The translations under genes and the position numbers were made by a program. The notes beneath the pieces are model-generated. The model had not been told where the DNA came from. It ran no database searches and saw only the letters and a program-made list of their open reading frames with translations. A stretch of DNA of 62,363 bases, counting the filler, from Bipalium vagum (Eukaryota), in assembly GCA_037834085.1 (NCBI GenBank). It is 3 parts of 3 records of this genome, joined end to end, with 100 filler letters (N's around TTAATTAATTAA, not from the genome) between each part and the next. Parts side by side here need not be neighbours in the genome. Positions count along the whole stretch, not along the records: positions 45,746 to 62,363 come from JBBMKC010102525.1; 2 more parts are not named here. One strand, written 5' to 3'. The first letter of the stretch is position 1, and each line of letters begins with the position of its first letter. Of the stretch, positions 8,501 to 62,363 are shown piece by piece.

Positions 8501-8591
8501 CTGTCGCAATGGTGAGTAGCGTTAATTTTGACTTGAGGTTCATTTAAATCTGGTTGCAGTGGTGAACAAATCATTATTTCATCACATCATT

Positions 8592-11500
8592 ATGGATTCA
8601 CCAATGGTTACATTAAGCCCTACTAATCAATCCAAACCAGTTTATTGCACCCCTAATCCTGTACCGAATATTCCCGAAAACAATCAAGTGTCGCTTATTG
8701 ATTATCGATGCGCAAAAATCGCTGCTTTTACTGTTGAGGGTCGTCAACTGATCTGTTTACCACAGGCGTTTGAATTATTCCTGAAACATTTGGTCGGTGG
8801 GTTGCATACAGTGTATACGAAATTGAAACGGCTTGAAATTGTACCGGTTGTTTGTAATGTGGAACAGGTGAGAATTCTGCGTGGTCTCGGAGCTATTCAA
8901 CCAGGGGTAAATCGATGTAAACTGATTGCGCCAAAGGAGTTTGATATCTTATTCGAAGATTGCACCAATTCAAGGTAAGGTATTGACAGGACAAATGTTA
9001 TTTTTGTTGAATAATTGGTTGATTTTCTTTCCAAAACATTTATTTGCTATTCAAAATTGGTACTCATGTTGTAATAGAGCAATTAACAAATATTTGAGAC
9101 TATTTGAGTTTCTACTCCCCGTTACCAAGAAGCAATAATGAATATATACATTAACTGGATATTCGATTTCGAGTTAACCAGTACTTGCGACTAGTAACGC
9201 CTTCTTACTTTTAATAATTAATGCATATTTGTTGATCTTTGCCTGGAATATTACTTGGAGTAAACTCTTAATATTTGCTTTTGTTGTTATATTAAATAAT
9301 CGAAATTTACTCATTAAAATATTCGATTACATTTCGAAATCCTCAATTATAACATGATTATTTTCATTCACTATAACCAGGACCAGAGAATTCTACGATT
9401 GTTAAATGTATTGTTAATATTTTATATTTTTCATATTAAATTATACAAAAGTATACAATTCTAGAACTTAGATCCAAGACTCCTTTTTGGTCAACGAAAT
9501 ATATCTAATCGATTGTGATAAATACAATCTTGAGAAATTCGTTGACAGAACTCCTTTAAAAATGAATATTTAATATTAAAATTAAATCCTTTTATATTTT
9601 ATTTTTACATGGAGAAAAACTTTTGGTAACAGAAAAATAAAATAATTTATTAAAAAATTTATTTTATAAAAATTTCATAGTTGATATTACGCAAAGTCAC
9701 TCAAACAAAAATACATTTCTTTCCACAAGGAAATTCAAGAACTGTTTGATAATATATATTAAAATATATAATAAAATAATAATACTAGGATGAAAAATGT
9801 TTTCCCATGAAATTCTCATCATTCTCAATTATTTTTCCTCTCATCCATATTTTATTATTCTTAGATATATAAATTAGTTTAGAAGAGAAAAAGTCAAAAT
9901 ATTAATCGCAATTTTTGTATTTTGAACTTGATAAAGATGTTGATTCCTTTAATGAATTTTCAACATCAAAAATTGCAGAAAACAATAAAATCAATCATAC
10001 ATTTCAGTGCCAGACCTGGGAGACCTTCTAAACGTGCTACGCTTCTTCCTGGAGATCTTAATATGTCTGAATCCATCAAAAGAACACACTACGATTTAGT
10101 AAACGATTGCATAAAATCTGGAGACTCAATAAATTCTTCATACCGATTATCATGTATTTATATTGAATAAAATGATTATAATCAAAACCTCATTGTAGAT
10201 GATGATGAAAAACGAATTTTCCTCCGAAATACGTTAGCACAGCACGGTTTCTGTCCTATTATACCTCCAAATTTGGGCTTCAGCTCAATGTTACCTTTTG
10301 GAATGGCAGGATCAATATTAAATCTTTTCCCTCATAATCAGTCCATTATAAAACAATTTTCAAATTTACCATCAATTAATAGAATAACACAAAAAGATCA
10401 AGCCTTGATCAATAAATCAAACTACTCAAAACTGAACAATTCCTTAATAATTCCAGGTCTCAACAAAGCAACAATAGATTGCAGTAAACAACCTTCACTT
10501 CTCATTATCATGAAATAATACCTTTTATTCAGACCTCAACTTGAACAATCAGTTTGATAACTCACTAATGTTGAATAACTTCAAAACTAACTTTGAAGAG
10601 AAGGACTCGATAAAGTAAGACTATAATAATATGAAAACAAATAACAATATATATTATTTAAGGTTATTGTCTCCTTCAAGTCTACCAAGTAAGATTTTTT
10701 GTTATCATTTTTTAAAATTTTTTTTTGATGAGTTGGAATTATAAAGTAAATAATAATTAATATTTACACAATAGATAAATCATCCGAAACAAATCTCAAC
10801 AAATCAAAGTCCTGCTTGTTTTCCGTAGACAATTTAGTTTTCGAAGGGAACTCAGAATCGAACATGGACTTGAATCCCTCTGTTTCAACTAATGAAAGCT
10901 TTACTAATGTTACAATCTCTTCGACAACGAGCACCAGTCCGGAAAACTTTGGAATGGGTTAATTTTTTAAAGCTTTATTGATCATTTATTTTCTTAAATA
11001 TATAGAAAAAGTCAACAAATTTCTCAGTAAAGAACAAGAATTTGTAAGACTTTTTCTACAGCATCAAATGAAAAGTAATAATAATAATATAAAACATATT
11101 TATATAGTATTTTTATCAGATAATAATGATGACAAGAATAAGCAATATGTTTGTGATCCAGTGAGAGAATTTTGGAAGATGAACATCAATATGAAACTTA
11201 ACCAAGCAAATCCCATGTATAATCCTGGTTTGTCGGAGTCTATGTCAAATGCTGGTGCAGACTGTAATACGAATTCATTCAACAATAACGTCACTGCACA
11301 ATCTTCGCAGCACTCCAATACAGAATGCAATTTGGAAATGCAGAAGAATTCAGATTTTCTATTTCCAGTTAAGAAAACAAGTCCTTTCATGATATCACAA
11401 GGACTTTCCTGGTTATTTCCTTCGGACAATACATCATTGAATAATTCACAAATGACACAATCCAGAATGAAATTATTTTCAACTACGAACAGTTTGCAAG

Positions 11501-11694
11501 GTAATTTTTAAAGGATTATATATTTTTTTTCATATTTACTGTACTTTCTAAAATCAATTTCCAATTATTTACATTTATATTTCACATCACTCTTTATCAG
11601 TATGTACGAATAGAAAATTTATTTAATAAAACAAAAAATTAATTAAATATCTCAAAACATATGGAATGTCAAATGCGACATTTTACAAGATAGA

Positions 11695-20380: not shown

Positions 20381-20589
20381 TTTGAAGATTTCTTTTGATT
20401 ATTAATTAAGCACTCACTAAATGGACTTTCTTTTAACTTATATTTTATTATTTTGTATAAATTTTAATTCCCATAAAACATTTCGTACATAATAATAATT
20501 AAAGTTACCATGAATGAAGATTTTCATAATGAAGATTTTCGTTCTTTATAGATATTTTTTATATTATTTTTATCCATTTTCTCTTCTTA

Positions 20590-21225
20590 ATTAAGAAATG
20601 GATATTCTTTGACGACACCAGAGGTTCCGGGGAGTGGGTATACAAAGATGCTCAACTAAGCACTGTTGCAAAGCAAGGAATTACTCCAAGGAAAGTAATG
20701 ATAATCTTCTGGTGGTCTGTGGCCGGTATTATTCATTATCATTTTTTGGATTTTGGAGAAACTGTCACAATGGAATCATATTGTGGTCAACTTGATGCTT
20801 GTCATGAAAAACTGAAGCAAAACGACCCTGCCTTGGTGAATCGCAACCGCCCTTACTTTTTCACAAAAATACGCGGCCACATATTGCTAAATTAATTCTA
20901 CAAAAATTACATGATCTTAATTACAAAACTTATCTTATATCCCAGATATATCTCCCACAGATTATCATCTGTTCCTGTCACTTGACAATTTCCTGCGAAA
21001 TAATAAGTTTAAAAATCATGATAATGTTTATCATACCTTCGCCTCTTTTATTGAATTCCGTGACCAGTACAATTTCAGAAACGGTATAAAGAAACTCGTA
21101 GGACGTTGGCAAATTGTTGCAGATGCCAATGGTGCATATTTTGATTAATAAAATTTTTTTGAATGACATTTCAACTTTTGATTTGTGAGATGAAAAAGCC
21201 ATAATACTTTTCCCTCAACCAAATA
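20590..21225 (+). mobile_element. 5'-truncated mariner, cecropia (Hsmar1-like) type
   Basis: KKWIFFDD…PRKVMIIFWWSVAGIIHYHFLDFGETVT…PALVNR…PDISPTDYHLFLSLDNFL…GRWQIVADANGAYFD*; 3' TIR at ~21199-21225. Confidence 0.85.
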
Positions 21226-38000: not shown

Positions 38001-41000
38001 TTTTAACCCAATTGTTGTGAATGAATTCAGCATTTAAAAATAGTACACACCAACATCAGATAAACAGATATGTTAAATGTTTGGAACTTTTTCAAGGATG
38101 ATCAACTTGATATTTATATAGATAAAAATTCTTAAATGGATACAGGGGATATTGGACGTACGTGCTTACTTATATATTCATGTAATCTGTCGATAATTTT
38201 ACATAAATGATGAGGAAATGCAGGAACCGTCAAATACAATTAGTACCGGTAATTTGAAGAAAGAATTTGAAGGATGAAAATTTTTTTTAATTCAATATAA
38301 TTTTCTTAAATTCAAAATTTAATTCAAAGCAAATAATAGTTTAATATTGGATCAGCTAATAATATATGATATCAATAATACGTTACTTTTGACAAATAAT
38401 AAACATTGATTTTCACTTTAATTTTCTAAACATTATTATTTAAATATAAATGTGAAAAAAATAGTTTCCTTTGTAATTCTTTTGGTGTTTTTTCTTACTA
38501 ACTATGAAAAAACTTTCATGGATTTTAAATAATTTTTAATAAAATCACATGAAATTTTGATAACTTCAATATAACGTACTAGCAATACAAAGAGCAGGAT
38601 CTTCGTCATATTTATCTGGACAATCATATTCTTCATCGCATATAAAATCAAAGCTTAAGCAAAGACCAGATTTGCAAGGCCATGGCCTACTTTCGGGGCA
38701 TACATTTCCAGGATTTCTTTTTATTCCTAAAATATTTGTTCATAAAATAAATAAATAAATTTATGAAAAGAAAATATGAATAATTTTTGCAAATTAATGA
38801 CACAGATATTGCAAAATTCGATCTTTTGGTATCTGAAATGCCAAGTCCAGAATTTAAAATTTCCTCGAAAATTTGCATAACCACGTGCAAAATTATGTTA
38901 ATGTTAAAGACGATTATTTTGAAAAAAAATATTTTTTGGTATTTTATTGATGTATAAAAATAAATTTTCTTATTGTAAATAAAGGATGACTTTTAATGAT
39001 TGCATGAAACTTTCTTAGGCATAGTTCAGTTAATTCCAATCTAAAAAACTCAAAATTTGGCAGAACTATATTTTATTATATAACAATCAATTTATTCACA
39101 AAAGATTTTCGAAGAAACATCCTTTGGCTTTCAAACAGGCTTTCAAACGTTTGGGAAAGTTATCCACAATTGCCGCTAATTCTGCAGTAGGAAATGAGTC
39201 TCAAGCTTTTTGAATATCGGTTTGTAATGTCTCCAAGTTGTTGTAGGAGTTCTTAAGTTTCTGTTCCATGATTCCCCAAATAGAGTAATTCATAGGATTT
39301 AAATCAGGCGAATTAGAAAGTCACGTATTTTTGTCCCAAAATGATGGAAAAAGTTCCTGGCACAACGCAATAGTGCTTGCAGCAGTCCTGTTGTAATGAT
39401 CAGTTGTCTTCACCAAAATATGTTTTAGCCCAAGGGTATAATACAGCTTTCAAAATGTCTTCTTAGTATCTTCTTGCATTCATTTTTACACCTCTTTCTA
39501 CAAAGACCAAAGGAGTTTTGCCAGAACCCGTTATACCATCCCAAACCAATACAGATTTTGGAAAACGACTTCGCATTACAATTGCGCGGTCTTTGGTACC
39601 TTTTTTCAGCAATTGTCTGTTATTCTGTGTGTTGCGACTGCCTTCTACCGTAAATATCTTTTCATCTGTAAACAATGTCAATTTATGGGGGCCCTGTGAA
39701 GTCAACTGCAACATTATCTTACATTTTTCCAATCGATTTTTCATCATCTTCGGATTTAGTGTTTGAGCTTTGCAGAATTTGTAAGAATAAAGCCCTAGAT
39801 CACTTTTCACAATTTTGTCAACAGAAGTTCTTCTGATATTCATTGATTTTGCTAAAGTTCGCTTTGAAATTGTTACATTGCGCTTAATGCGTTTTCTGAT
39901 GCGTTCCCGTATGTTTCTTGTAGTAGTAGTGACTTTTCTACCTCTTCCAGAACAGTCTGAATCAGATCCAAGCTCTACAAACCTCTTTATTGCCCGCGAG
40001 ACTGTTGATTGTGGAACTTTCAGCAGTTTTACTATAGCCGACTGTTACATTCTTTGTTTGTATAAATTCCAATATAGCAGTCCGAAGATGATTAAGTTTC
40101 ATTTTATTAAATATTATTAACAAAATAAGCAATCTATATTTATAAACGATTATCAATACAATAAGAATTAAAATTACATTAATACAACTTTCATATCATT
40201 AATCATCAGGTGAGCAAATTAAAATTACATTAATACAACTTTCATATCATTAATCATCAGGTGATGGGACTTGTTCAAAATAATATGCAATAATTAAAAG
40301 CCACCGTGTACTTAAATTTCCCCTTTGACAGGTAATTATTTTTGTCAGTTTTAATGAATTCTTATTTAATTATATTAACAAATTTTCAATGCCAACGTTA
40401 CATGTTTGGCTAATAAAATGCTGCGATTTTTCTTTTCTTTTCAATTAACAATTTATTATTAAATATTTACAAATAAATAAAAAACGTGTAACATAATTAG
40501 AGCATATTTAATTGTTAATTTCAAAATAAATTTTTTTTAGATTGATGGATGTTTAATTAACGTTTTTCAAATGAAAAGGACAATTTAAAAATTTTAAGCT
40601 TAAGACATCTTTCATTAAAAAACTTTCCATTAAATTTCATAAACTGTCGCCAACAAGAAGGTAACTTATAAATTCCAGTGTGATAAAAGTCTTATTTTCA
40701 AGAGATGAAGAATTTCTCAAAGACATCTTTCATAATGTCGTACTTGCTGAAGATACCTTCTTTGACGTTGCAAATAAAAACTAAATTAATTTTATAAAAT
40801 ATTAAAAATTAAAAATAAAGTTATTTAAAATAATTTATTTTTTAAATAAATATTAAAAATTAAAAATATTTTTATTTACAATTGAATAAATATATTTAAT
40901 TAAATATTTTAATAATTTCTAGTAAAAATCGACTCAAAACTGTTATTTTAAGTAAATTTTACTAACAAATTAAAGTCTAAGGTATTTAAAAACTAAAAGC

Positions 41001-46810: not shown

Positions 46811-47204
46811 CATTTAAAGTAGGTATAAAATACATGTTTTATTTTTAAAAAAATGGATGCGAATGAAAATTTTAATAATCTTAAAAAACAAATTGAACAA
46901 TTAAAAAACTAGCTACAGTAAAAAATAAATTTGAAACTAATAAATTAGATCAATGGAAAGAAGAAAGAGGATTAACAATTGATTTAGATAAATTTTATAA
47001 ACTTGTTGTAGATAATGCAACAAAATTAAATGAAACTTAAAAAATTAGATGAAATCAAAACTAATCAAACGACAAATGTTGCAAAGATAAAAGATGAAGA
47101 TAATATTTTTACACCAAAAGATTTTGAAGTTACTGATGTATATAAAATTGTTGAAGAGAAATTTATTTAAGGCTTAAGAAATATTTAATATTATTTTAAT
47201 TTAT

Positions 47205-49035
47205 TAAGAAATATTTAACGCTTTTTCATTTTCTAACATTTTTTCATTTAATGAATTTCCTGGTAATCTTTCAAAAATTTCTTTAAAAATATTTGATTCG
47301 AATTTTTGTCTTAATGCTGCAACTCTTCCTCCTTTTACAGATTTTCTTTTAAACTTTCTAATAAATGGATTAGTATGAGAATAAATTTTTGTAGATTCTG
47401 ATAAGGATAAAATTTGTAAAGATTTATACCAAGCTTTTCTTGTTAAACCTGGTGCGGTAAAACAACATCTCGTATCTAATCCAAATGAATTTTAAAAATA
47501 GAATTAAATTTATAAACAAGAATTGCTAAAGATAGAACATCATTATTAAATATGGAAGCCATTCATTTTTTCTTTCTTCATAATTATTTAAATCTACCGA
47601 TGTTATTTCAAAATCTTGTCTTTTAAATTCTGGGGGTAAATAAAATGATTCACACCAATTCTTTAAAGATGATTTTAGAAATTGATAAGAACATCTGAAA
47701 TGAATTTTAAATTTTATTATTTCCACAACTTCCTCTTTAAACCTTTTTCTGTTAAAATTTTTTCTCAACTTTTTTAAAAGGGATTATTAAACTAATTATT
47801 TCTGAACTTGTTTTTAAGAATGGTTTATTTAATATTCTTAAGTTATTTGCTAAGACTAAATAATTATCAAATCCTGAATCATTGTGTGCAATTAATAAAA
47901 TATCATTTTTTGGTGTCGGTTCTCCTTTTTTATATTTTTTAACACATGACATATTTAAAATATTTTCTATCATTTCCTCTATACAATTTTTCCAATAAAA
48001 TATTTTATTTGATCTTTTACTCGATTTTCCAAATATGAAATATTTAAACATTCACCTGGTCCTTTGTAATTAATTCTTTATTTAATTTTAATAATTTTTC
48101 TACATTCGTAAAAGCGCAACCATAAGGTACTTGTTTTCCATTTTCAATTGTTGCTGTTTCCAAATCCCATACATAAACCTTGTGTGGTTCAAAATTTTCA
48201 TGAACGAAATTTTTAAATTCTGATATTTGTTTTATATCTTCTTCTTCACATGTTTTCCAAGATAATTTGTAATTTTCTTCAATTTCTTGAATAGATTCAT
48301 TTATATTTTATCTATTGACTAAACAGTAGTGTTTTTTATAATTATAAAAACAATATTTGAAAATTGATTTTGAGAATTTCTTACATAAATATGTCTATCT
48401 TTTTTTGAATAATATTGAATATTTGTTTGAAAACATTTTTTAAATTCTGAAATTCTTGCATTTGTCATTATTCCTCTTCTCTCTTTATAGTGATTTAAAA
48501 ATTTAATAAATAATTGTGTAATATCTTCGTCTCAAATTTTATTATTTTAAAGACAATAGCATTTTTAAAAACATAAATTGTCACTCGGTATAAAACAATA
48601 TTTTCCAAAATACTCATTGACTTTTTTAATATATCATTTGAACCCATTACAGATTCGAATTGAATAACATTCCTAAATCTGGTATCCAACTTGCGATTCC
48701 TTTAAATTCCAATTCTTCCATATCTAAATTTTCTTGACTTGAATTTAAGAAACCATTAACCATTTGTTTATTATAATAATTTTTAATATCTTCTCCATTC
48801 TTTTTATCAATAAAATCATTAATTCTAAGAGTACCAATAAAATCATTTTCAAAGACTTAGAAATATAAATTAGATTTTAGTTAAAACATTAAAAAATGAA
48901 ATAAGATTTTTATAAACATGATCATTATTTGAATTTATTCTTTCTGTTGATCTAAGTGAATTATTTAATAAATCAATAGTTTCATCAATTGAAACATTTA
49001 ATAAATTCGAATCACTTAATCATTCTCGAATTCAT
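47205..49035 (-). pseudogene. Protein-primed family B DNA polymerase, N-terminal and exonuclease part (polymerase palm missing)
   Basis: ExoI VYVWDLETA, ExoII LIAHNDSGFDNYLVL, FRCSYQFLKSSLKNWCESF, ExoIII YL..NDVLSL, CFTAPGL, pre-motif SVKGGRV; frameshifted; ends before the DxxSLYP motif. Confidence 0.85.
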
Positions 49036-49089
49036 TTTTTTAAAGAAAATTTAACTTTTTTAAAATTTTTAATTTTTAATTTATTTTAT

Positions 49090-51281
49090 TTTGTATCTTC
49101 TTCCATATGATGGAGATATAATTACTCTTGTCCTTGGAATTGCTGAGCAACTTGAGCTTTTTGTTGACGAAGATTTTGGAGTCTCCACATTTCTCCCACG
49201 GTTTCGAGACTTTTGTCCCCAAAAGAAGGTTGAGGCATGTGAAGAATTACGTGTTCACCATTGGGAGTGCGGGCAATAACGCTTCTATTTCGAATGACTT
49301 TCTTTGAAGAGATAGTATAGAGGTAGGAATTGTCAAGTTGTGGGGTCTGTGTTTCCTTTTTATTTTTTACCTTTAAATTTAGTTAATGGGGCATCAACAT
49401 CTAATATGTTGGTGATTGGTAGTGGTCGAAATGCATATGTAGTGTTTGCAACTTCAATGTTTATGTTTTCTGTGTGTGTTTCTGTAGGAAAAAACAATTT
49501 CTTAGCCCGTCGAACCAAACTCGGAAAACGCATGCGTTTCCGATTTTTCTTTGGTTTAGGCGTTGCTATGGGACTTGGTATATTATCTGGGAGTGAGATT
49601 GAATCAAGAGGAATTTTTTATGCTTGTCGTAAGGGTGGAGGTGGTGCTGGTAGATCAAATGGTCCATTTTCATTATCATCTATCGTCAAAATACAACCTT
49701 CGTATTCTGATGCGTCAAAAGAGATATTGGATGCCATTGATACAAGATTATGGTCTATAGCTGGGATATCACTGGTTGCTTTGATAGTATGTGGACACTG
49801 TGTTTGGTACTCTTTAACAATTTCTGTATCAGCCAATGGACTTCCTGTTGCTATTTTGTCATCAAATATTCTTTCTACTACAATTACAAAAAGGACAGTA
49901 GGATGGAGGTGGAGGAGGTGGATTTTCAATTTTTTCATTGATTCGGTTATCCTCAGCTATTGCGTTAGTGGTTTGCAATTCTCTTAGGGTATTTCATTCT
50001 ATTTTAAACCAAATTTCCCGGACGTAATGCGTGTTTTTATAGCATTGCAAGTCTCTTCAAACTGGACCTCTTTTGGTTGTAGATGCTAATTCTGGGACTT
50101 GTAGTTTGGTTGCGGTATTTGTAATTTTAGGATGCCCTTAGGTGATATCTTCATCATATTGCGTAAATATGGTAACATTTGAATGTCGATGTATCCTGCT
50201 AGAGTTTGAGTGGGTACTCTGCCTAGGGTTAATATATATTCCACCGGATTGGCTATTAGTACTTTTTCATTAAGGGCTTCTTTTAGGTATTCATATACAA
50301 GTGGTTCGTCAAGGCTGCTGATAAAGGCCTTGTCGACAATGCCTGTTTTTTGGTAGTTCATCTTAAAATACGCTCGTGGTGCTACTATGTGTCTTACAAT
50401 ATCTTGGCCACTGTAATCCATAACATGCATTGCTAATAAGACATGTTTGGATTGGTCAGTACCTAGTTTGTATGTAGTGAGGTTAGCGAAAACTACGTGG
50501 GATTGTATATCTTAAACTTATTTCTTAAACTTAGTATGGCTCTCTTGCTCTTAGAGCTTTAAATATTGAATCTTCATCATGCTGTAATTTGGATATCTTC
50601 TATGACTAAGACGGTATTCTGTTTCAGTGTTTCGAAACACAGGGACCGTGCTAAGCCAAGTAGATTGTTGCATTTTATTGTGTAGTACATATCTAATGTG
50701 ACTGGTTCAGCTATTCTTCATAATCGCAGGATAATGGAGTTAATGCACACATGCATGTGTATAGTCTCTCTTTCATATAATTGCTTAAAATGGGAAATAA
50801 CGTCTGCTAGGTAAAAGTATTTAGGGTGTAATATTTAGTGTATATACATGATTCTGCAACCTGTAGAGGAAAATTTGCAAGAGTTGGGAATATGTGTGTG
50901 TTCGAAACTAACACTGTTTACTTCTATGATGCCGGTTTGATATTTTAAATAGGCTAAGCATTCCTGGTAGGGGGTTTTATTAAATTTCTCAAATTGGATG
51001 ATGGCATCGGGTTTTGCTTCAGGGAAATATTTACTTAGTGGTATGTTAAGGGTTTTCTGCGCTGATGAGTATGAATTACTGGTTTGAGATTTGGAAGTGG
51101 AGTAGAAATTGCATTGTCGGGAAACAGTGAAACCAAGTTGTGTAGATTGCGACTTTTTGGACATGATTTGGCCTGAAATTAAGTAAAAACTAAGCACCAT
51201 TATAACATTTAAGATGAATAGATGTGTTTTACAGAATAAAAGAAAACATAATAATGAAATATCATTATTTGCTTCGCTCAT
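49090..51281 (-). pseudogene. Accessory ORF B (~700 codons, frameshifted): hydrophobic N-terminus, Pro-rich and basic C-terminal half
   Basis: ORF pieces 50835-51281, 50086-50430 and 49618-49938 are colinear; LFILNVIMVLSFYLISG leader; ENPPPPPPSY; PAPPPPLR; PKPKKNRKRMR. Confidence 0.5.
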
Positions 51282-51287
51282 TAATTG

Positions 51288-51950
51288 TCATAATTCTGTC
51301 ATTTCATACATTACAGGTTCTATTTTTTCAATAGTAGTACACAACTTTTTCTTAGCTATAAATTTTACCAAATAAAATCCAAAAAGGAATAGACTAATCA
51401 GGGAAATGAAACAGAAAATCACTATTAGTACCAAAAAGAATGGTTAGATAGGGGAATTCAAATCAAGAAAGATATCACGCATTATTTTATCATAATAGTT
51501 TTCTCTATTATTATTGTTAATGCTTTCAATAAAGAGATGATTCGTGGTAGCCTTTTAGAATCGTATTGAAATGCTCTGAGGATATTTTATTGATTATATT
51601 AGAATTATTTATTATTAATGGTAGGAAAAACGTATCTATTAACCACCAATTTAGTCGGTAATATATGTATTGTTCAAATTCTATCATGTGTCTACCATCT
51701 GCTAAATTATTTAAAACTATACTGGTATTGTTTTTAAATAATGCTCCGTATGATTTTTTGTGAGTATAAGGTTAATATATGGTTCAGATTATTTTCTCTA
51801 GATGGTGTACTACATATCTCTATATCCTGTTTTCCATAGAAGTTAAAAGAGGTAACTTTAAATTGTGAAATTTGACTTTATGTCTGATGAAACAGTATTG
51901 TAATCATGTATTGTAATATTGATAGGGTATTGTTGAGTTTTGTCAAGATA
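51288..51950 (-). pseudogene. Accessory ORF A: type-I membrane (env-like) protein remnant
   Basis: Ectodomain pieces with N-x-S/T sequons (NNT, NNS), then …DLNSPI*PFFLVLIVIFCFISLISLFLFGFYLV KFIAKKK LCTTIEKIEPVMYEMTEL*. Confidence 0.5.
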
Positions 51951-52149
51951 ACGTAATAGGATAGTTTAGGAGTTTGGTTTTAGGTGTGTAAAGGATATCT
52001 GTGAATCTTTTGTCAGAACCGAAACGCTAATATCAGTGGATGTTTTTAATTCAACTAGAATGGCAATGGTACGTAAGGGTGTAATGATGGCGGTATTGGT
52101 GTGAAACGCTATCAACTTAAAAGTTTTTACTTGTATACAACATAGGATT

Positions 52150-54340
52150 TTTTACTTTTTTCATAGTTTTCTTTCATTGCTTCTTGGTTATGTTTGATGG
52201 ATAGACCAGCCTTGCTCAATGCATCTTGAATTCTTTCTTTCATGATGGTTACGTAACCTGGTTACTCCATGTATTGGCTAATAGGTTTTTGAAAAATAAG
52301 ATCAATTGGCATGTTGGAATTTCTTAAATACATTAGATAAAATGGAATAAAGCCTGTTCCTAAATGAACGGCATTTCGATAGGCGAATAGGTATGATGGA
52401 ATATGAATATCCCAATCATTTTTTTAGTGTTTACGTATGAGGCTATCATGTTAGTTAAGGTATAATTAAATCTTTCTACCAAGCCATCAGTTTGTGGATA
52501 ATAGGGAGTTGTATTTAATTTTAATATGTTAAAATATGCGTTAATAGAGGCCAGTAATTCACTCAGAAACTCTTTTCCGCGGTCTGTGAGTAGCTTTCGT
52601 GGTACTCTATACCGGAATATGATATGCTCAACAAAAATTTTAGAGATAGTGTCTGCTTTGTGATTTGGCATGGAAAAAGCCTCTTGCCATTTAGTAAGAT
52701 AATCACTCACAACTAATATATAAACATTTCCTGAAATAGTTTGAGGAAGGGGTCCTACAATATCCATGGCTATCATTTCCATGCGAGCAGGGGGTACTGG
52801 CATAGGTTTAAGGGGTGCTTTTAATTTTCTTCCTGTGTTTCTACGGGTTTGGCAAATTTTACACGTGTTACCTCATTGCTTAATATCTTTTATCATATTT
52901 GGCCAATAATATTTTTGACTTATATGGGAACGGGTTTTACGATTTGATAGATGTTCACCGAGAGTTCCATCATGATATTGAACTAACACTGACTCTCGTA
53001 GGCTTTCTGGTACAAAAATGACTGAGTTCAGGTGCTCCTTATACTTGAGTAAACCTTCATCCCAATGAAGATTTTTTAATAACTTTGCATATGTATTTGT
53101 TGCAAGTGATGGGTTTTTTATATAAATATTAATTTTTTGTATTTCTGAGTCTTCTTTTATTACTTGTTTAAGATCGTCAAGGGTATTGAGTTTTTTGTTT
53201 GACTCATAAGATATACTTCAGTCATTCTGGATAGTGCATCTGCATTGTCGTTCGCCTTTCCTTTGCGGTAAATGATTTTATAATTGTATTCCTGTAATTT
53301 GAGTGACCAACGGATAAGGACCTACGGATTATGTATCTCTGTGCTTTTCTAAGTAAGCCAAGGTATTGTGATCAGTATATAAAATAAATTCTCGACCCCA
53401 TAAATGGGTTTAGAATTTTTTAACTCCGAAAATGACATTCTAACTCTATTACTGCATAATGCTTTTTATGGGATTTAAGACTTTTACTAGCTTAAGCAAT
53501 TGCGTAGTCTCTATTTTCATAATCTTTAAGCCTAAAACTGCTCCAATAGCAGTTCAACTTGCATCACACATAGGTTCAAATCATCGCCTAGGATCAGGGT
53601 AGCGTAGAATTGGTGATGATATTAAGAATTTTTTTAATTCGTCAAATGCTGTTTGATGATCAAGATTCCATTTAAATGTTTGTTCCTTTTTTAATTTTTT
53701 GTTAAGGGATGCTGCAATTTGAGCGAAATTTCTAACAAATCTTCGGTAATAGTTTGCTAAACCGAGAAATATTTGAACTCGCTTGGGTGTTTTGGGGGCA
53801 ATTGCATTTTTGACTTTTTCAATTATTTCGGGATCAGGTTCTATGCCATTTTGTGATATTATGTGGCCTATATATTTCATTGAATTTTTTCCCAATTCGC
53901 ACTTGGTGGGTTTTTTTTAAAAACCTGCTACTTTGATTCGTTTTAATACTTCTTTCATATCTTTCATGTGAGTTTCAAAGTCAGGAGAAAATCAACGATG
54001 TCGTCTATATACACCATTTTTGGATAGAGAAATCTAGGATTAAACCTGGAATTTTAGATAGGATATCCATGCCGATTATACATTCAAGTTCGTTATTTTC
54101 CATTACTTTTAATGTATGATATATATCGTAACCCATTGTTCGAATAATGCTTTTGCATGTTCATAGCAAGGGTACTGATTTACCATCTACGCATATTACT
54201 GATATTGGTGATGTATTTACAGTGGCTTCTTTTCTGTATTTAAAATTTGGGCGTCAATAAGGGAAATGTGTGCACCAGTATTTACCAGAGCCAGAACTGT
54301 GTTTATTGACTTTGATTGTAATCATAGGTCGAGTTTTGTT
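52150..54340 (-). pseudogene. Pol: aspartic protease, 5'-deleted RT, RNase H, integrase
   Basis: ALVNTGAHISLI (DTG to NTG); VYIDDI…KCE…YIGHIIS..GIEPDP…FLGLANYYRRFV; CDAS..AIGAVL; YTDH; ADALSR; H..H…YYWPNM…CKIC; AMDIVGPLP…LTDRGKEF…YYPQTDGLVERFN. Confidence 0.92.
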
Positions 54341-54469
54341 GATTATGAAAGAATATCTTACGCAATTTATACTAGGCGGTTACTATTTGCATGATTAAAA
54401 TAAAAAAAAATATATCTATTTGATCAAATAGTAATGGGACTTGTTGCATACTGATTGTGCCATTATATT

Positions 54470-54650
54470 CGGCTGTAGCCAATAAAGTAATGATTTCCGT
54501 TGATTGCTTATCTTTGACCATTTCTAACGCTGTTTGTTCATATATATTGCGATAAAATAGGTTTATATCAGGTCTTTTGAATAATATTTTAACTATTTCT
54601 GCATTTACTTCATAACGACTAGCAAGGTGGAGGGGTGTTTCATCATTTAA
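54470..54650 (-). pseudogene. Ankyrin-repeat segment inside the Gypsy polyprotein region
   Basis: NDETPLHLASRYEVNAEIVKILFKRPDINLFYRNIYEQTALEMVKDKQSTEIITLL: one full TPLHLA…EIVKIL…DIN repeat and a second TAL…EIITLL repeat. Confidence 0.8.
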
Positions 54651-54656
54651 ATATTC

Positions 54657-55810
54657 CTGTTTAAATACGCCTGTTTAAATACGCCTGTTTAAATACGCCT
54701 GTTTAAATACGCCTGTTTAAATACGCCTGTTTAAATACGCCTGTTTNNNNNNNNNNNNNNNNNNNNNNNNNNNNNNNNNNNNNNNNNNNNNNNNNNNNNN
54801 NNNNNNNNNNNNNNNNNNNNNNNNNNNNNNNNNNNNNNNNNNNNNNAAATGCAAGATTCTCTTTTACTTTATGTAATGTATCAGTTTTNNNNNNNNNNNN
54901 NNNNNNNNNNNNNNNNNNNNNNNNNNNNNNNNNNNNNNNNNNNNNNNNNNNNNNNNNNNNNNNNNNNNNNNNNNNNNNNNNNNNNNNNCCTGTTTAAATA
55001 CGCCTGTTTAAATGCAAGATTCTCTTTTACTTTATGTAATGTATCAGTTTTTGTTACTTGTTTTATGTATGGTATACTGTTTGCTATGGAATTCGGTTTT
55101 TTAATTTTGATTGTTGGTTTCTGGGTTTCTATTTCAGAACCCGAAACTTTATCGGTTTGTATTGTTTGGTTTCGTGCTTTTGATATTATTGATTTATCTA
55201 TGGGTGGAATTGTGACATATTCTGGGATATTAAGCTCATTATTTTAAATATTATTTTAAATATTCCTGTTTAAATACGCCTGTTTAAATACGCCTGTTTA
55301 AATGCAAGATTCTCTTTTACTTTATGTAATGTATCAGTTTTTGTTACTTGTTTTATGTATGGTATACTGTTTGCTATGGAATTCGGTTTTTTAATTTTGA
55401 TTGTTGGTTTCTGGGTTTCTATTTCAGAACCCGAAACTTTATCGGTTTGTATTGTTTGGTTTCGTGCTTTTGATATTATTGATTTATCTATGGGTGGAAT
55501 TGTGACATATTCTGGGATATTAAGCTCATTATTTTAAATATTATTTTAAATATTCCTGTTTAAATACGCCTGTTTAAATGCAAGATTCTCTTTTACTTTA
55601 TGTAATGTATCAGTTTTTGTTACTTGTTTTATGTATGGTATACTGTTTGCTATGGAATTCGGTTTTTTAATTTTGATTGTTGGTTTCTGGGTTTCTATTT
55701 CAGAACCCGAAACTTTATCGGTTTGTATTGTTTGGTTTCGTGCTTTTGATATTATTGATTTATCTATGGGTGGAATTGTGACATATTCTGGGATATTAAG
55801 CTCATTATTT
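54657..55810. repeat. 14-bp tandem array (CCTGTTTAAATACG)n plus three identical ~280-bp copies around two N gaps
   Basis: Identical ORF translations at 54849, 55355 and 55631; copies abut gaps, so probably assembly stutter. Confidence 0.85.
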
Positions 55811-57154
55811 TCCTCTGATTCTGGTGCATCTATATCTGTATGCCAATATTGGGGGTTCATTTGGGCTATTGGTTGATAATCTTGTTCTAGAATTTCTTGA
55901 AGTATTACATCTGTTTCGTCCATTTCCTGCCATGTGGATATTTTCCTGTTTTTCTGCTTGCATTGGTTTTTCTTTCTCCGATTCCATAGGAACTTCACAA
56001 TACTCTGGTTCAACATTGTCTGAATTGATTTGTGTTTCGTTTAATGTATCTGTCAAATCAATTATTTCGGTTAACATTGTTTGTTTTTGAGTACCATGGT
56101 AGTATACTTGAATTTTATTCGTTTTTCGGGGATTACATTCACAATCTATCAAATATTCATCATCATCGATTAATTTTCCAAATATTTATGGTAATAAGGT
56201 ATTTGGAAATTGTAGTTTTTCTACAGCCTTTTTTCGTAATTTATGAGTTTTACTATTAATGAGCATTATGTAAGTTTCGTTAGTATAATCCTGCATTTGT
56301 AATTGAACCGTTATTGTTTTATATCATTCTTGCTTTTTCTTATAGCTTGACCGTATTTTCTTAAGATAATTTCTAACCTCTTTGATAAACTACTGAAAAT
56401 TTTGCCCAATTTCGAAGTTTTTCAACTATTTTTTCTAGTGTCTTGACAGCTATTGGCATCCGCGCTATTTCATTTAGTATAGTTCTAATTTCATCATAAT
56501 CCAAATTGGTTTTTATTATTTCTTACTATTAGACTTCTATAAGACTATTATCTTGATTGAGTTTTGTCTGATAATAATATAAGTTAATTGGTCTTTTTAG
56601 ACATTTCTGTACACCAGTAATTATTTCATGTGCCATGGTTTTGGTTGTGGCTACATTTCGAACCATTAGATTATCTGGATATTGATAATATATGGTGAAT
56701 GTAGTTTCTATTGATGGCCAATCCCTTCCTAATTTTTGTAATAATTGCAACTCTATCGGAGAACTAACTTTATGATGTCGTAAGAAGTGTTTCACCTCTT
56801 CGATATTGTCAATTGGGGTTTCTCTTGTTATCCATTTTTTGCTATTTCATTGGCATTTCTAACTTCTATTACTCTATCAGAAATTATTGTAATGTGATTT
56901 AATATATCTTGTTCGGGATCTCCTAATCGTTCTACTTTGGCATATTCTTCAGTAAGGAGTGATTCTACCCTTTCAATATGTGACATGCGTACTTCAATTG
57001 TATCGTTGTTTTCCTCATTGTCATTTACAATATTTGTTTTAGGTGTCATTAAGGAAAAAATTCTCTGTAAGTATCCAAATTTTCATCAAATAAAACATTT
57101 AACTTTTCTCTCAACATTCACTTGTTGTCGTTGGGATGAATTAAAATTTATACT

Positions 57155-58105
57155 TCAACAAACATCTTTCACATGTCCTCTTTTTCCGCATTGTAAGCAT
57201 TGCAAATTATGCGCTCTACATTCGTTTGTATTATGGTTCCGACGCGCACATTTGGTACATTGTTTATTATTATTATTATAATCAAATTGCTTGTTTCCAT
57301 TGTTACACTCAAATTGTTTATGTCCACTATTATTATAATTATTTCTATTTTGGTACTGATTCATTCGTGTTCTCATTTGGTTACGTTAGTTATTTCCATC
57401 TAAAACATTATAAGGTTTAGTGCAATATTCATTAAATCGGACTTTTATCTATCGGGCATTCTCGGGGTCCATAAACCATTTCATTACATTTATAACATTG
57501 CATTTGATTACTATTATTTACTTAATTGGTGATTTTGGCATTAATCCAGCGGTCTGTGGACTCTTATTTATTACATTTACTGTTTTCATTTCAACAGCAG
57601 AATTATTGAATTATTTGCTCAAATGCTTCATGTCTATATAGCATGATAGCTGCTTTAATTTCATATCTTAATCCAGACCATCATTGGTCTTTTACTATAA
57701 CTTTAGTATTTTCGTCCCATTTATCTTGTAGACCGAAAGCTCTCTGAGCTACGGTTTTTAAATTGTGTATACTCTGATACTGTTTCATTCATTTTTTTGC
57801 TTTAAGCTATAAAATTGTTGCCTGAATAATTGGCCTATGTCACCTCTGAAAATTTGTTCCTCTAAAGCGGATTTAACTGATGTCCAATTATCATCTTTTC
57901 CGTTGGCTACTATATCTAAATATGTGTCTCTTGCTCTATTCTTTAAGTAAATGGATAGTCGGTTCATTTTTATTCTTTCTGTAAAACCATATGCGCGGTT
58001 TTTAACATAATAATTTGATAAAAAATCGGGTAATTCGGTTGGGTTTCCACTGTATGTATCCATTTTAATATAACCAGTATATTTTACCACTGTCATCATG
58101 ATCAC
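57155..58105 (-). pseudogene. Gag with two CCHC zinc knuckles
   Basis: DTYSGNPTELPDFLSNY…LSIYLKNRARDTY…W..VKSALEEQ…LKQK (retrotransposon gag); CTKCARRNHNTNEC and CLQCGKRGHVKDVC. Confidence 0.9.
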
Positions 58106-58866
58106 TTTCTGTCATTTTGATTAATTTACTTTTATTAATAGTTTCGGTTAAACGAGAACGAGTTATTAAAGGCTTTTCAACTATTAAACTTTGCTTTTAT
58201 TATTAACACGTATTATGAATTGATAAAAAATTTTCATCACATTATTTAGCTTCTTTTAAGGTGATTTTATTTTGATGCAAATAAAAATTGAACCATGATC
58301 TCTTTTACATTATTACTACGAAAAATTATATTTTTAACTTACAAAATAAGGAATGTTATAAGAAATCTCATTTTAATTTGTTCCTTTATTATATTTTCAA
58401 TGAAATCATAATTTTGTCACTAATTTATTGCAAATTTAGTAGATTTTAAAAATTTTCAAAATATTTTAAGTTACAAAATAATGTATTTAGAATAGATAAA
58501 CCAAAATGACCCTGGGGGTATGAGAACGGAATTTTAACCGTTTAATCATAGGCTTTTCATTTGAAATTATGAAACAGCAGATATTGGAAACTTTGGAAAC
58601 CTAACAACTTTGTCACCTTTTCTTTGAGAAAATATAATCATTATCTATATATTTATTACAAATTTTGTACAATGACAAAGTTCTTCAACGACGCTCAATT
58701 TGAACCGATTTTTCTTCAAAGTTTTCAAAGACTGTAGCAAGAAACTGTACACTTTCCATTATAGATTTCTTCATGACCAGGCCAACAGAACGAAATTAAA
58801 AAAAATTAAAGCTTATAATGAACAGGATCAAAAATATTCAAAATAATAAAACGACTGAAAAAAAAT

Positions 58867-59975
58867 TTATTTTTTTCGCTTTTTGTTTTTGGGAATTTTT
58901 TCCATTTCTTTTTTTCTATCCCACAGGAACAATAACTTCTCTTGAAGAAATTTGCACTCATTCATCAGAACACTGAAAGCATCATCTTTGACAATGTCCC
59001 GGACAAAGCGTACATATTCGTCGACGAAAGACTGAGTTTCCTCAATAATAATCACCAGCAATAGAAATTAAAAAATGAAACCTTTCTCTCAACATCATTA
59101 CGATTTCTCAGTGCTAATGAATATCTTTTCTCATACTCCATATTTCTGTTCTGTAGTTCCAATAACTCACGGTAGCGCTTTGTATAGATCGGATATAATT
59201 GATTATATTTTTCAACCAAGGTACTTGGTGTTAGTTTTGAAAATGTTGTCTCGCAATTCCTAAAATTATCAAAATATCAAGAGTAAAATAGTTTTATTAA
59301 AAGGCGATGTGTTGGTAAAATTCAAAAAGAATAATTACTTTGCAAAATCTTCTCTGAAACCATCCTGAAGGAAGTAAAATAATAATAATCAAATATTATC
59401 AATAATACCAAGTCGTCAGATTTTCTTTTTGACTTTTGACTCACTCTTGAAGATTTTACTGATATTGTTTGTGGAGGATTTATCTTTTTGTTTAAATCGC
59501 TTAAATTAGATTAAAGTGTTCTAACATTTTTTTGAAAATCTTACGAAAAATTTGCAATATAGCTAGATTTAAGATTGAGATGAAATTGACACTTTGTTTT
59601 AAAATCAATGAAAAAACTAAGAAATTCAAAAATACATGTAATTAAAATAAATTTTACTATCAAATTACTTCTTTCCAGAATACTTTTCAATATAAATATT
59701 AGAATCACTACTGGATATGTGATATTCGAAAACCTGGCATCTGCTTAAATCTTTATTATTAATAAGAAATTTCTAAACAGACATTAATATTTTAACAAAC
59801 TTAATTTTTATACCAAATTATTTTCCTCTAAAATAACAGTAAAATTATTTACCTAAATAAAATCCAATAAAATCCAATAAAAATTAAAACTAAATTACAA
59901 TACTTGGGATGAAAATTGTTCTATAATACTCAATAATTCATCAGATAAGGATAAGTAAAAAATATCTACATCCAT
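58867..59975 (-). CDS. Intact 8-exon gene, 251 aa, probable small ELL/occludin-homology protein; complement(join(58867-59040,59082-59259,59339-59364,59409-59499,59545-59616,59669-59772,59814-59852,59904-59975))
   Basis: Seven GT-AG introns of 41-79 nt join into a stop-free 756-nt CDS from ATG to TAA. C-terminus KYNQLYPIYTKRYRELLELQNR…FVDEYVRF…NECKFLQEKLLFL resembles the ELL/occludin domain; N-terminus IFYLSLSDELLSIIEQF resembles ELL-N; basic NLS-like tail KNKKRKK. Gene structure is strong, family call is moderate. Confidence 0.7.
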
Positions 59976-60874
59976 AAAGTTTTTTTAAAAATTCAAATTA
60001 ATCTCTTTTATAATATTATTTAAACAATATTTTGATTAATTAATATATTAAAATGCAACAATTTTATTAAAAATAATATTTTAAACTAATTAATTACAAA
60101 TGAAATAACATGTAAATTAAATAATCAAGTAATAAATTTTATAAATATTTCATATCAAAATATGATTTTCAATAGCTTTCTTTTAAAAATATTAAACGTC
60201 ATTAAAAATAGTAAATTTTTAATATTTTTTTTAATTAAGTTTAATTAATTTTAAATTAAAAAAATATTTTTCTATTATTAATTTTAAATCTTAAGTTAAT
60301 TCAAATAATTTTTCATCATTTGGTTTTGGATCATCTGGATTACTATATTTTAAAAATGCTTTTTCATTTTCTTTAATAATTAAAAATGATATTTCATTTG
60401 TTTTTAATGTGTTACCTATAATTGATGGAGTAATAGTTGATGTTAAATTAGAAGTATTTAAATCCAAAGTTAGAGATGGTGAAATAGGTTGTATACTACA
60501 ATCTATTGAAGGTTTTTTATCATGGAATTTGGACTACACCGATTCTAAACAACTTTGAGGTTTATTTATTTTCTTTATAATTTTTTTTTCATTTTTTATG
60601 CTTAGAGCATCAGTAACTGGTTTTTGAAAATATTTTAAATCTTGTTCTGATCTTCTTTCTGCTTTCCATTCATTTAATTGATTAGTTTCAAATTTATTTT
60701 ATCTAATAAATTTTTTAATATATTTAATATATATTTAAATTCTTTTTTTTAATTAAAACTATTTCACTTTTTTAATTTTTTACTCTTTCTCTTTATATTC
60801 TTTATTTAACTCTTGTTTCATTTCCTTTAAACTTCTTTTTTTCAATTTTTAATAATATTTCCTGATTTTATTTT

Positions 60875-61395
60875 TTAGATATTATCTTTACATCCAGTAA
60901 TTATTATTTTCGCTTCTTCAATTTCTTCATCGGATAAAATTTTATCTTCTATTGCTTTCATTTGAAATGAATAAAGTTTATTAATTGACGATTTTATTGT
61001 TTCACAAATTTTTCTACATATCTTTTTCTCTTTTGAAGTAACTCCTATACTAGTTGTTTCTCCGATAAATAAATTAAGAGCTCCAAAACTTGCAGTTCCA
61101 AAAGGAGAATAAATTAATAAGCCAGTTCCAAATGTTGGTATTCCTGTCATAATAGCAGTTCCAAGTCTTAAAATTCCTTCAATAAAAATACTTCCTAATT
61201 TTAAATAAGTATCTATAGAAAAATCTATATATTTAACTTTAAATTTCTTATAATGTTTTAATAAATCCTCTAAAAACTTTTTTCTCATTTATAAAATTTT
61301 TTTAGATCGGTCAAAGACCTTAAAAATTGTTCTTCATCTTCGTAAATAAATTTATTATTTTGAATACATGGTAAATAGGGACAGTTTGTTTTTCT
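60875..61395 (-). pseudogene. Polinton membrane-associated protein ('GasderminX'-like), copy 2
   Basis: ORF 60875-61288 has Gly-rich hydrophobic segments (LGTAIMTGIPTFGTGLLIYSPFGTASFGALNLFIG) and a KAIEDKILSDEE end; a frameshifted N-terminal part (EKQTVPIY…NKFIYEDE) lies upstream. Confidence 0.65.
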
Positions 61396-61859
61396 GTATG
61401 TCTTTCTTATAATTGTTCACTATTTAATGTATCCAATTTAGGTCGGACTCCAACTCTTAGGTGGTGCAAATAATAACAATCAGTAAAGCAGCAATTTGTA
61501 TATATCACACAATCACAAAAATACAGAATGATAATCAAAAGTCTGGGATCACAATTAATGTCTGAAATGTTTCACAAACTTTCAAGATCAAACTACTCCA
61601 CAAAATAAAATATAATCAAACAACAATAAAATCAAATAAATAATTAGAATAATAAGTATATCAAACAGCAATGTCAAATAAAAAGTCAATTATAATATAA
61701 TGTTTAATTCAAAGTCTAATTAAAACAAAATATTACAAAATATCAAAATTAATAATTACTTTTTTTTAAAAAAATAAATAAAGATAAAAGAAAATAGAAC
61801 AGTATTACGGTTTATCTTCCGCTAAAACTCCCGAGTTATCGTCTGATCTCACCTCATAA

Positions 61860-62363
61860 ATATTATTCTCACCATTTAAATCTATTAATCCATATACATT
61901 TGGATTAGTAAAATAAATTTCATTTTTAATAAATATTTCATCCGTCCATTTTGCTGTATATCCCTTATCGAATTTATTTTTATATTTAAAAATTCTTACC
62001 CTATCTAAAACTTTATACTTTGAGTTATTTTTATTATTATCATTAATATTATTCAAACTTTGTGGATTTTCACTAGCTTCTTTAGGTGTAAATTTAATCA
62101 TTCTGTGAATGTTATTATTATAATTATCAATTAATTGAGGTAATAAATTTAACCCTTTTCGGTTACCTTGTTCTGTAAACTTTTTGAACATCATATTCTT
62201 TAATGTTTTATTAAATCTTTCAATTACAACAGCTTTAAAGGTTGAATAAATTTCAATTTCATTATCTTTACAAAATTCTTTGAAGATTTTATTGTAGAAT
62301 TCTGTACCTTTATCAACCCATAGTTTATTAGGAATACGTTGATATGTTTCAAATATGTTTTCA
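61860..62363 (-). pseudogene. Polinton c-integrase (rve), partial, C-terminus interrupted
   Basis: PNKLWVDKGTEFYN…KAVVIERFNKTLK…LIDNYNNNIHRMIKFTP…DRVRI.KYKNKFDKGYTAKWTDEIF…YGLIDLNGE. Confidence 0.9.

Follow-up and report, generated by a model that had tools for sequence, protein, structure and literature searches.

A probable dead Ty3/Gypsy-type element of Bipalium vagum with a ubiquitin-like domain and an ankyrin segment between zinc knuckles and protease

The closest described systems are Burro1-4/GYPSM1, giant Gypsy elements of Dugesiidae planarians with an internal region of up to 25 kb and an ORF1 of 4,900-5,100 aa (PMC6431247). According to the available text of that source, ORF1 of GYPSM1/Burro contains retrotrans_gag, two or three CCHC knuckles, MATH, Ubi2/SUMO-like and BCL2 domains, BIR, ankyrin repeats, env and PR-RT-RH-IN; env lies in-frame between BCL2 and the protease, and a dUTPase-like domain lies between PR and RT. 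The source describes one ORF for Burro, reports Burro fragments in decay in Dugesia japonica, considers that the elements may be proviruses, and leaves as an open suggestion that they meddle with host ubiquitination and apoptosis (PMC6431247). A further source, which mentions Burro, gives the planarian genome as >70% A/T (PMC11410931). For one Gypsy group, both an ankyrin and a ubiquitin-like domain are on record in the text of PMC6431247, the only paper found in our literature search to link either domain to a Gypsy polyprotein; Grohme 2018, Repbase and the supplements of PMC6431247 were outside the scope of this search and may describe such features. The sequence-only reading of our locus had proposed a retroelement lineage with a captured host-interaction module and had cited Burro without saying that the ankyrin and Ubi2/SUMO-like domains were reported there; annotation of the family with this domain, which the same reading had named as counting against it, exists in Burro/GYPSM1 at the level of the idea (PMC6431247).

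Two other systems are comparable in part. The GAG-ENV-POL errantiviruses of nematodes, bryozoans and flatworms also carry an acquired gene between Gag and Pol, in their case for a gB-type fusogen, with ankyrin, ubiquitin and Burro unmentioned in the available text (PMC13524379); no fusogen was detected in our window. The bdelloid rotifer LTR elements Juno, Vesta and TelKA resemble our locus in their extra 3' ORFs, which include small transmembrane proteins, but their cargo consists of separate ORF3s, and ankyrin is not mentioned in the text available (PMC5408684).

We analysed a window of 62,363 nucleotides of Bipalium vagum DNA (about 24% GC). The minus strand from about 58150 to 49100 is A-rich and has a GC content above that of the flanks, on which basis a single element of about 9 kb was delimited. 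Read along this strand, the order is Gag, knuckles, insert, repeat array with two gaps, ankyrin, protease, half of RT, RNase H, integrase, membrane-anchored tail and further ORF remnants, and the distance from the Gag start to the protease is 3,826 nt with the gaps taken at face value. Both the Pol order PR-RT-RH-IN and the capsid of Arc/Ty3 type upstream of pol are those of Ty3/Gypsy (Metaviridae). The pol segments which align to the database protein P0008 contain 6 frame changes and 7 stops. We regard the element as dead because of these stops and frame changes, 313 missing residues, a substituted catalytic residue in the protease, and the lack of an LTR pair in a repeat-finder and self-BLAST search of the window, the copy being decayed. 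On balance, the tract is probably the remains of a Ty3/Gypsy-type retroelement of an animal genome, a copy that is dead and has lost internal sequence. The density of stops and frame changes led us to reject a domesticated host gene. At about 49225-49185 (-), a purine-rich run followed by TG resembles, by eye, a polypurine tract and LTR start, of which a second copy was not found.

The Gag capsid region, together with a first, degenerate zinc knuckle, is located at 57456-58111 (-) and contains stops and a frame change (Pfam Retrotrans_gag E 0.012; tblastn of P0123 E 9e-25). In the relative P0124 the capsid has a fold like that of the Arc (dArc), PEG10 and MLV capsids. An N/Q-rich linker with two intact CCHC knuckles and one broken knuckle follows at 57062-57385 (-) (Pfam zf-CCHC_5 E 6.7e-4), in the arrangement of P0123. 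With four knuckle positions in all, of which two are still intact and the others degenerate, the insert begins after the fourth, not after the second as had been supposed. P0123, the closest Gag relative by score, has tandem repeats of about 19 residues after its knuckles (residues ~430-510), so repeat arrays in the post-knuckle region may be a trait of the lineage.

The insert, measured between the last knuckle and the point where the first repeat copy ends, is 1,526 nt long (~508 codons). The four colinear decayed ORF pieces of about 1.5 kb described earlier were recovered over this span, on the minus strand and from stop to stop, at 56828-57082, 56529-56846, 55805-56185 and 55546-56040. The earlier estimate of about 500 codons holds, whereas the description of the insert as unknown does not hold throughout: about 150 of the ~508 codons form a helical domain and a ubiquitin-like domain, the remaining ~350 having no family assigned. 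Concerning the first ~175 codons (56553-57080, -), no convincing Pfam or PHROGs family was found, and none of 283 candidates scored when the piece 56361-56846 was compared with a set of 5.8 billion sequences. A four-helix domain, TFIIS-N/IBD-like or a generic HEAT pair, is split over two frames at 56332-56552 (-); a profile built from three relatives ranks two colinear spots there at the top of its matches in the window, weakly (E 0.07 and 3.7). The ubiquitin-like (beta-grasp) domain at 56099-56320 (-) is matched by a profile made from the relatives P0124, P0130 and P0158 alone (E 1.7e-15) and also by a PDB profile search (E 0.0025). It is followed by an acidic low-complexity linker of about 181 codons (55555-56098, -), which has no Pfam family at E<=10 and corresponds to a stretch of P0124 with pLDDT <50.

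The relatives were collected with HMMER, using one reading frame against 1.84 billion representatives, which gave 35 matches at E<=0.001. The best-aligned stretch of P0124 falls in the insert, P0130 matches the insert too, and P0158 was added by a profile search, in which 7,997 candidates were scored and 3 matched, the two inputs included. Each of the three is a Gag protein with a capsid and a knuckle followed by a conserved module of about 160 residues; the modules are 45-48% identical among themselves and about 30-33% identical to the window. Their ubiquitin-like domain lies within ~700 residues of the protein start, which suggests compact elements. Judged by sequence comparison, the helical and ubiquitin-like module has evidently been inherited within a Gag lineage; as it is common to three database Gags, the insert is read as an ancestral Gag extension, in agreement with the earlier claim that it belongs to the lineage of the element. 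The three Gags differ from our copy in having no ankyrin. P0123 and P0126 had seemed, by eye, to end in the helical domain; the module profile scored neither of them, and this reading was rejected.

A structural model of the module, with P0124 as first sequence (pLDDT 75.7), contains four helices and a beta-grasp domain. The beta-grasp part aligns with the C-domain of ISG15 (Z 12.3, rmsd 1.7 over 76 of 77 residues), and Foldseek agrees on the ubiquitin fold. The helical part has no Pfam match; its model aligns with the Elongin-A TND (Z 9.0, rmsd 3.3 over 77 residues), the yeast LW domain (Z 8.5, rmsd 2.5 over 75), the IBDs of LEDGF (Z 8.2) and HRP2 (Z 8.1), and the HEAT solenoid of Importin-13 (Z 9.6), all of which are below the guide value for helical bundles of about 13 Z. 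TND/IBD structures make up 4 of the 25 matches of this domain and are tied with HEAT solenoids such as Importin-13. A preprint presents TNDs as binders of short motifs in elongation factors, and its available text names the TND and the IBD of LEDGF (10.1101/2025.08.28.672863). Downstream of the module, P0124, P0130 and P0158 have an invariant R-G-R-P motif (Pfam AT_hook at just E 0.81), which was not seen in the translation of the window. After its ubiquitin-like domain and linker, P0124 has a helical C-terminal region (residues ~830-985) with a weak bcl-2 match (NCBIfam E 0.013), and this is the order reported for Burro; as Bcl-2, the C-terminus of P0124 has no Pfam or PDB match and no usable Atlas match, and its model is mostly at pLDDT <50.

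Between insert and ankyrin lies a repeat array (54646-55811, -) of three identical 257-nt block copies, a 42-nt fourth piece and a 14-nt microsatellite, interrupted by two assembly gaps of 100 N each and of unspecified true length (54747-54846 and 54889-54988). The duplicated block and the 14-nt unit reported earlier are both present, in higher numbers: the block occurs three times with 0 mismatches, the 42-nt piece between the gaps belonging to the same block, and the unit occurs 10 times. Identical copies inside a heavily decayed element point either to a very recent origin or to an artefact of assembly.

The ankyrin segment, one repeat and a C-cap, is found at 54468-54648 (-) in the ORF 54372-54674. 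Pfam gives Ank_5 at E 1.5e-5 (25.6 bits, curated cut-off 27), Ank_2 at 7.6e-5 and Ank at 7.9e-4 for this ORF, the only one with Ank matches among the 24 ORF pieces scanned. In the PDB, 110 sequences match at E<=0.01; the best 60 of the 110 are mostly ankyrin or DARPin chains, and the best-aligned stretch is the last repeat plus C-cap. The best Atlas score is 0.98, with family agreement in all ten best matches. Across the six frames of the window the motif has a single occurrence. The ankyrin is genuine by three methods, though under the curated Pfam cut-off. The ankyrin identity proposed earlier is upheld; the segment is a repeat with its cap and not an array, possibly the end of a longer array of which the rest is hidden or lost at the gaps and the microsatellite.

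Several features make it likely that the ankyrin is an original part of the element. It shares the element's strand, and no gap separates it from protease-RT-RH-IN. The stretch of 16 nt that immediately precedes it is found three times in all, two of them upstream of the gaps. In base composition it resembles the element: its skew and its GC are both reached in 3 of 264 windows taken from outside, which gives a likelihood ratio of 12. An ankyrin foreign to the element, brought in by a scaffold misjoin at the gaps via the shared 14-nt microsatellite, by later insertion or by recombination between two elements, would agree with the two 100-N gaps and the three 100%-identical copies which adjoin the junction, and with the motif being absent from all 158 collected relatives, of which only four pol relatives extend to the protease. 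However, Gag and Pol keep their proper order and strand on the two sides of the gaps, the specific 16-nt variant stands on both sides of them, the composition fits, and, with no gap from ankyrin to integrase, even a misjoin would leave the ankyrin on a Gypsy pol; a foreign origin is accordingly quite unlikely. No relative with ankyrin adjoining the protease was found among the 158 collected proteins, and none of the 120 integrase matches has an Ank label in Pfam; two of the three word-index searches which yielded the pol and module relatives covered proteins up to 2000 residues. For the Gags with the module and for the integrase clade, no shared contigs could be established.

The protease follows the ankyrin, as had been claimed: the ankyrin cap ends ~45 codons before the first protease-aligned residue, and an aspartic protease remnant with a frame change, a stop and a substituted catalytic residue is present at about 54331-54026 (-), aligning to the proteases of P0008, P0010 and P0012 at E 4e-6 to 2e-3. 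The ankyrin ORF itself closes at a stop (54372), the protease is in other frames, and a T-run lies between them. These features would fit an ankyrin which is original to the element and forms the C-terminus of a separate Gag ORF, with Pol made via a programmed frame change; the ankyrin would then mostly remain a Gag tail and polyprotein cleavage would not be needed. P0124, P0130 and P0158, which end without a protease, and P0007, P0008, P0010 and P0012, Pol relatives predicted without Gag, fit this arrangement as well. Against this, pol has 6 other frame changes in 1.9 kb, so that one further change is expected from decay alone; Burro uses a single ORF in the text of PMC6431247; and gene calling or decay may have shortened the database proteins. 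We consider separate Gag and Pol ORFs unlikely; the one continuous polyprotein proposed earlier, with the ankyrin released by the protease, may have been the arrangement of the living element.

The 3' half of RT, RNase H and integrase, with the 6 frame changes and 7 stops in their aligned segments, occupy 52142-54017 (-); in comparison with P0008, a deletion has removed 313 residues between protease and RT. No Pfam match to a dUTPase was found in eight integrase-clade proteins scanned, and in the window the PR-RT interval is deleted. The ten nearest integrases (P0003-P0012) are 57-66% identical to that of the window, which groups with them in a quick tree (SH-aLRT 91; 120 rows, 149 columns); this ten-member group was defined after the tree, as the top ten matches. 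The slot before the protease varies in the clade, with a membrane domain in P0008 and a second protease in P0012, and this variability speaks for the ankyrin as a part of our copy. Upstream of its protease, P0008 also carries a second, homologous unit, which matches the tail of P0010 at E 2e-7. A scan of genome contigs gave two loci, L001 and L002, neither of which extends upstream of the protease. They are integrase-clade members (L001 1-4655, L002 1-1891) on short contigs filed in bacterial MAG records and are probably eukaryotic carry-over.

Downstream of the integrase, a decayed tail (51288-52100, -) has one transmembrane segment at 51440-51384 (hydropathy 3.17) and, in translation, ends in S/T-x-hydrophobic. 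A transmembrane segment after the integrase is found in 7 of the 10 nearest relatives vs 2 of 110 others with any such segment, and the layout of the window is that of these seven. An S/T-x-V/I/L ending, which may be read as a PDZ-binding motif, is present in 5 of the 10 and in 3 of the 110. In P0003-P0012, Pol is prolonged by a tail made up of a signal-like segment, an ectodomain and a transmembrane anchor; its end is frequently S/T-x-V/L, and it is a candidate non-canonical envelope or surface protein. Homology of the tails is not claimed, because profiles of the clade tails, run against the window in all six frames, gave no significant match, the best E being 0.2 or worse. The P0003-P0012 proteins share the integrase with our copy and differ from it in having no ankyrin and in tails without detectable homology to its own.

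The copy can now be set beside Burro/GYPSM1 as described in the available text. The two have in common Retrotrans_gag, several CCHC knuckles, an in-frame accessory region with a ubiquitin/SUMO-like domain and ankyrin, PR-RT-RH-IN and tandem repeats; the likeness in the ubiquitin-like domain is one of fold class, and in the ankyrin one of presence in the polyprotein, compared by description (PMC6431247). They differ in size, about 9 kb in all vs an internal region of up to 25 kb and ~500 accessory codons vs thousands, and our copy has one ankyrin repeat and cap and, after the integrase, a membrane-anchored tail and extra ORFs (PMC6431247). No Pfam match to BCL2, BIR or MATH/Smc was found in the window pieces scanned, where the gaps could hide sequence. 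Concerning env, there is no hydrophobic 19-mer of 2.0 or more between Gag and protease, the two that were found being 3' of the integrase. By size, by BCL2, BIR and MATH and by env the copy departs from Burro and is not classed as Burro. A true Burro, heavily deleted and with BCL2, BIR and env lost at the repeat array and gaps, would explain the shared Gag-CCHC, ubiquitin-like domain and ankyrin; a large pol deletion is already evident, the host is an AT-rich animal, and Burro fragments decay in Dugesia japonica (PMC6431247). This origin is nevertheless very improbable: BCL2, BIR, MATH and env matches are lacking in the window, the ubiquitin-like domain of the Gag relatives lies within ~700 residues of the protein start, and a post-integrase membrane tail is not part of the Burro description in the text of PMC6431247.

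We propose that the Gag frame carried an accessory cassette between knuckles and protease, made of the four-helix domain, the ubiquitin-like domain, the disordered linker and the ankyrin, in a polyprotein which would work like a small Burro type. This arrangement is also favoured by the Burro precedent, in which Gag-CCHC-Ubl-BCL2 and ankyrin are described in one ORF (PMC6431247). In the living element, we infer tentatively and at less than even confidence, the cassette may have served as a set of docking modules without catalytic activity, which entered the particle as part of Gag and were then cut loose by the protease that the element encodes. The ubiquitin-like domain, which is internal and would not offer a conjugatable terminus, and the ankyrin could act as adaptors or decoys for proteins of the ubiquitin/SUMO pathway, and the helical domain could contact transcription-elongation factors or the integrase.

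An ankyrin in a Gypsy polyprotein is already in print for Burro (PMC6431247) and will be no surprise to the specialist. The contribution of this locus is evidence for a Burro-style accessory cassette in compact elements and for its modular build: three other Gags share its helical and ubiquitin-like core with different tails. The suggested meddling with host ubiquitination and apoptosis (PMC6431247) becomes testable, because small natural domains are easier to study than a polyprotein of 5,000 residues. A wider and rather doubtful extrapolation is that of a widespread invertebrate Gypsy lineage which would carry its own LEDGF-like tether in Gag. The TFIIS-N/IBD-fold and ubiquitin-like domains, with the AT-hook-like motif of the relatives and a last module that can be exchanged (an ankyrin in our copy, a Bcl-2-like region in P0124), would direct integration towards transcribed chromatin with no need of a host factor; a non-canonical membrane protein would lie behind the integrase, and Burro would be the giant end-member. 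LEDGF is a host cofactor used by lentiviral integrase; should the helical domain be a genuine TND/IBD, the retroelement would encode its own counterpart of this cofactor. Among the papers listed in a literature search on this point, none joined 'TFIIS N-terminal domain' and 'retrotransposon'.

Beyond the tail, further decayed accessory ORFs with the strand bias of the element are located at 49122-51287 (-); they have no family match, and Pfam, PDB, NCBIfam, PHROGs and phage tblastn searches of them returned nothing. One of them, 50089-50511 (-), resembles by eye a catalytically dead DEDDh (REX4/ISG20-type) exonuclease, a resemblance to which the Pfam, PDB, NCBIfam, PHROGs and phage searches lent no support. 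Rotifer LTR elements carry DEDDy ORFs in the available text of PMC5408684. Rfam gave no match over 48000-62363.

The 3' end of the element adjoins another mobile-element remnant. Decayed pieces of a protein-primed DNA polymerase B (Pfam DNA_pol_B_2 E 0.0019) and an integrase-like ORF (rve E 0.063) are found at 47200-48600 (-) and 61805-62362 (-) and are suggestive of Maverick/Polinton remnants on both sides of the element. An inverted match of 73% between 46922-47035 and 60587-60700 may be due to chance. Elsewhere in the window there are exons of a Dachshund gene at 8532-11511 (+) (Pfam Ski_Sno_DHD E 1.8e-37), which mark the host as an animal and could serve to place it, a mariner transposase fragment at 20533-21089 (+) (Transposase_1 E 5.6e-18) and a Tc1-like HTH fragment at 39463-40044 (-). 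Upstream of Gag, at 58880-59300 (-), coding-like pieces with no Pfam match may be host exons or an accessory ORF.
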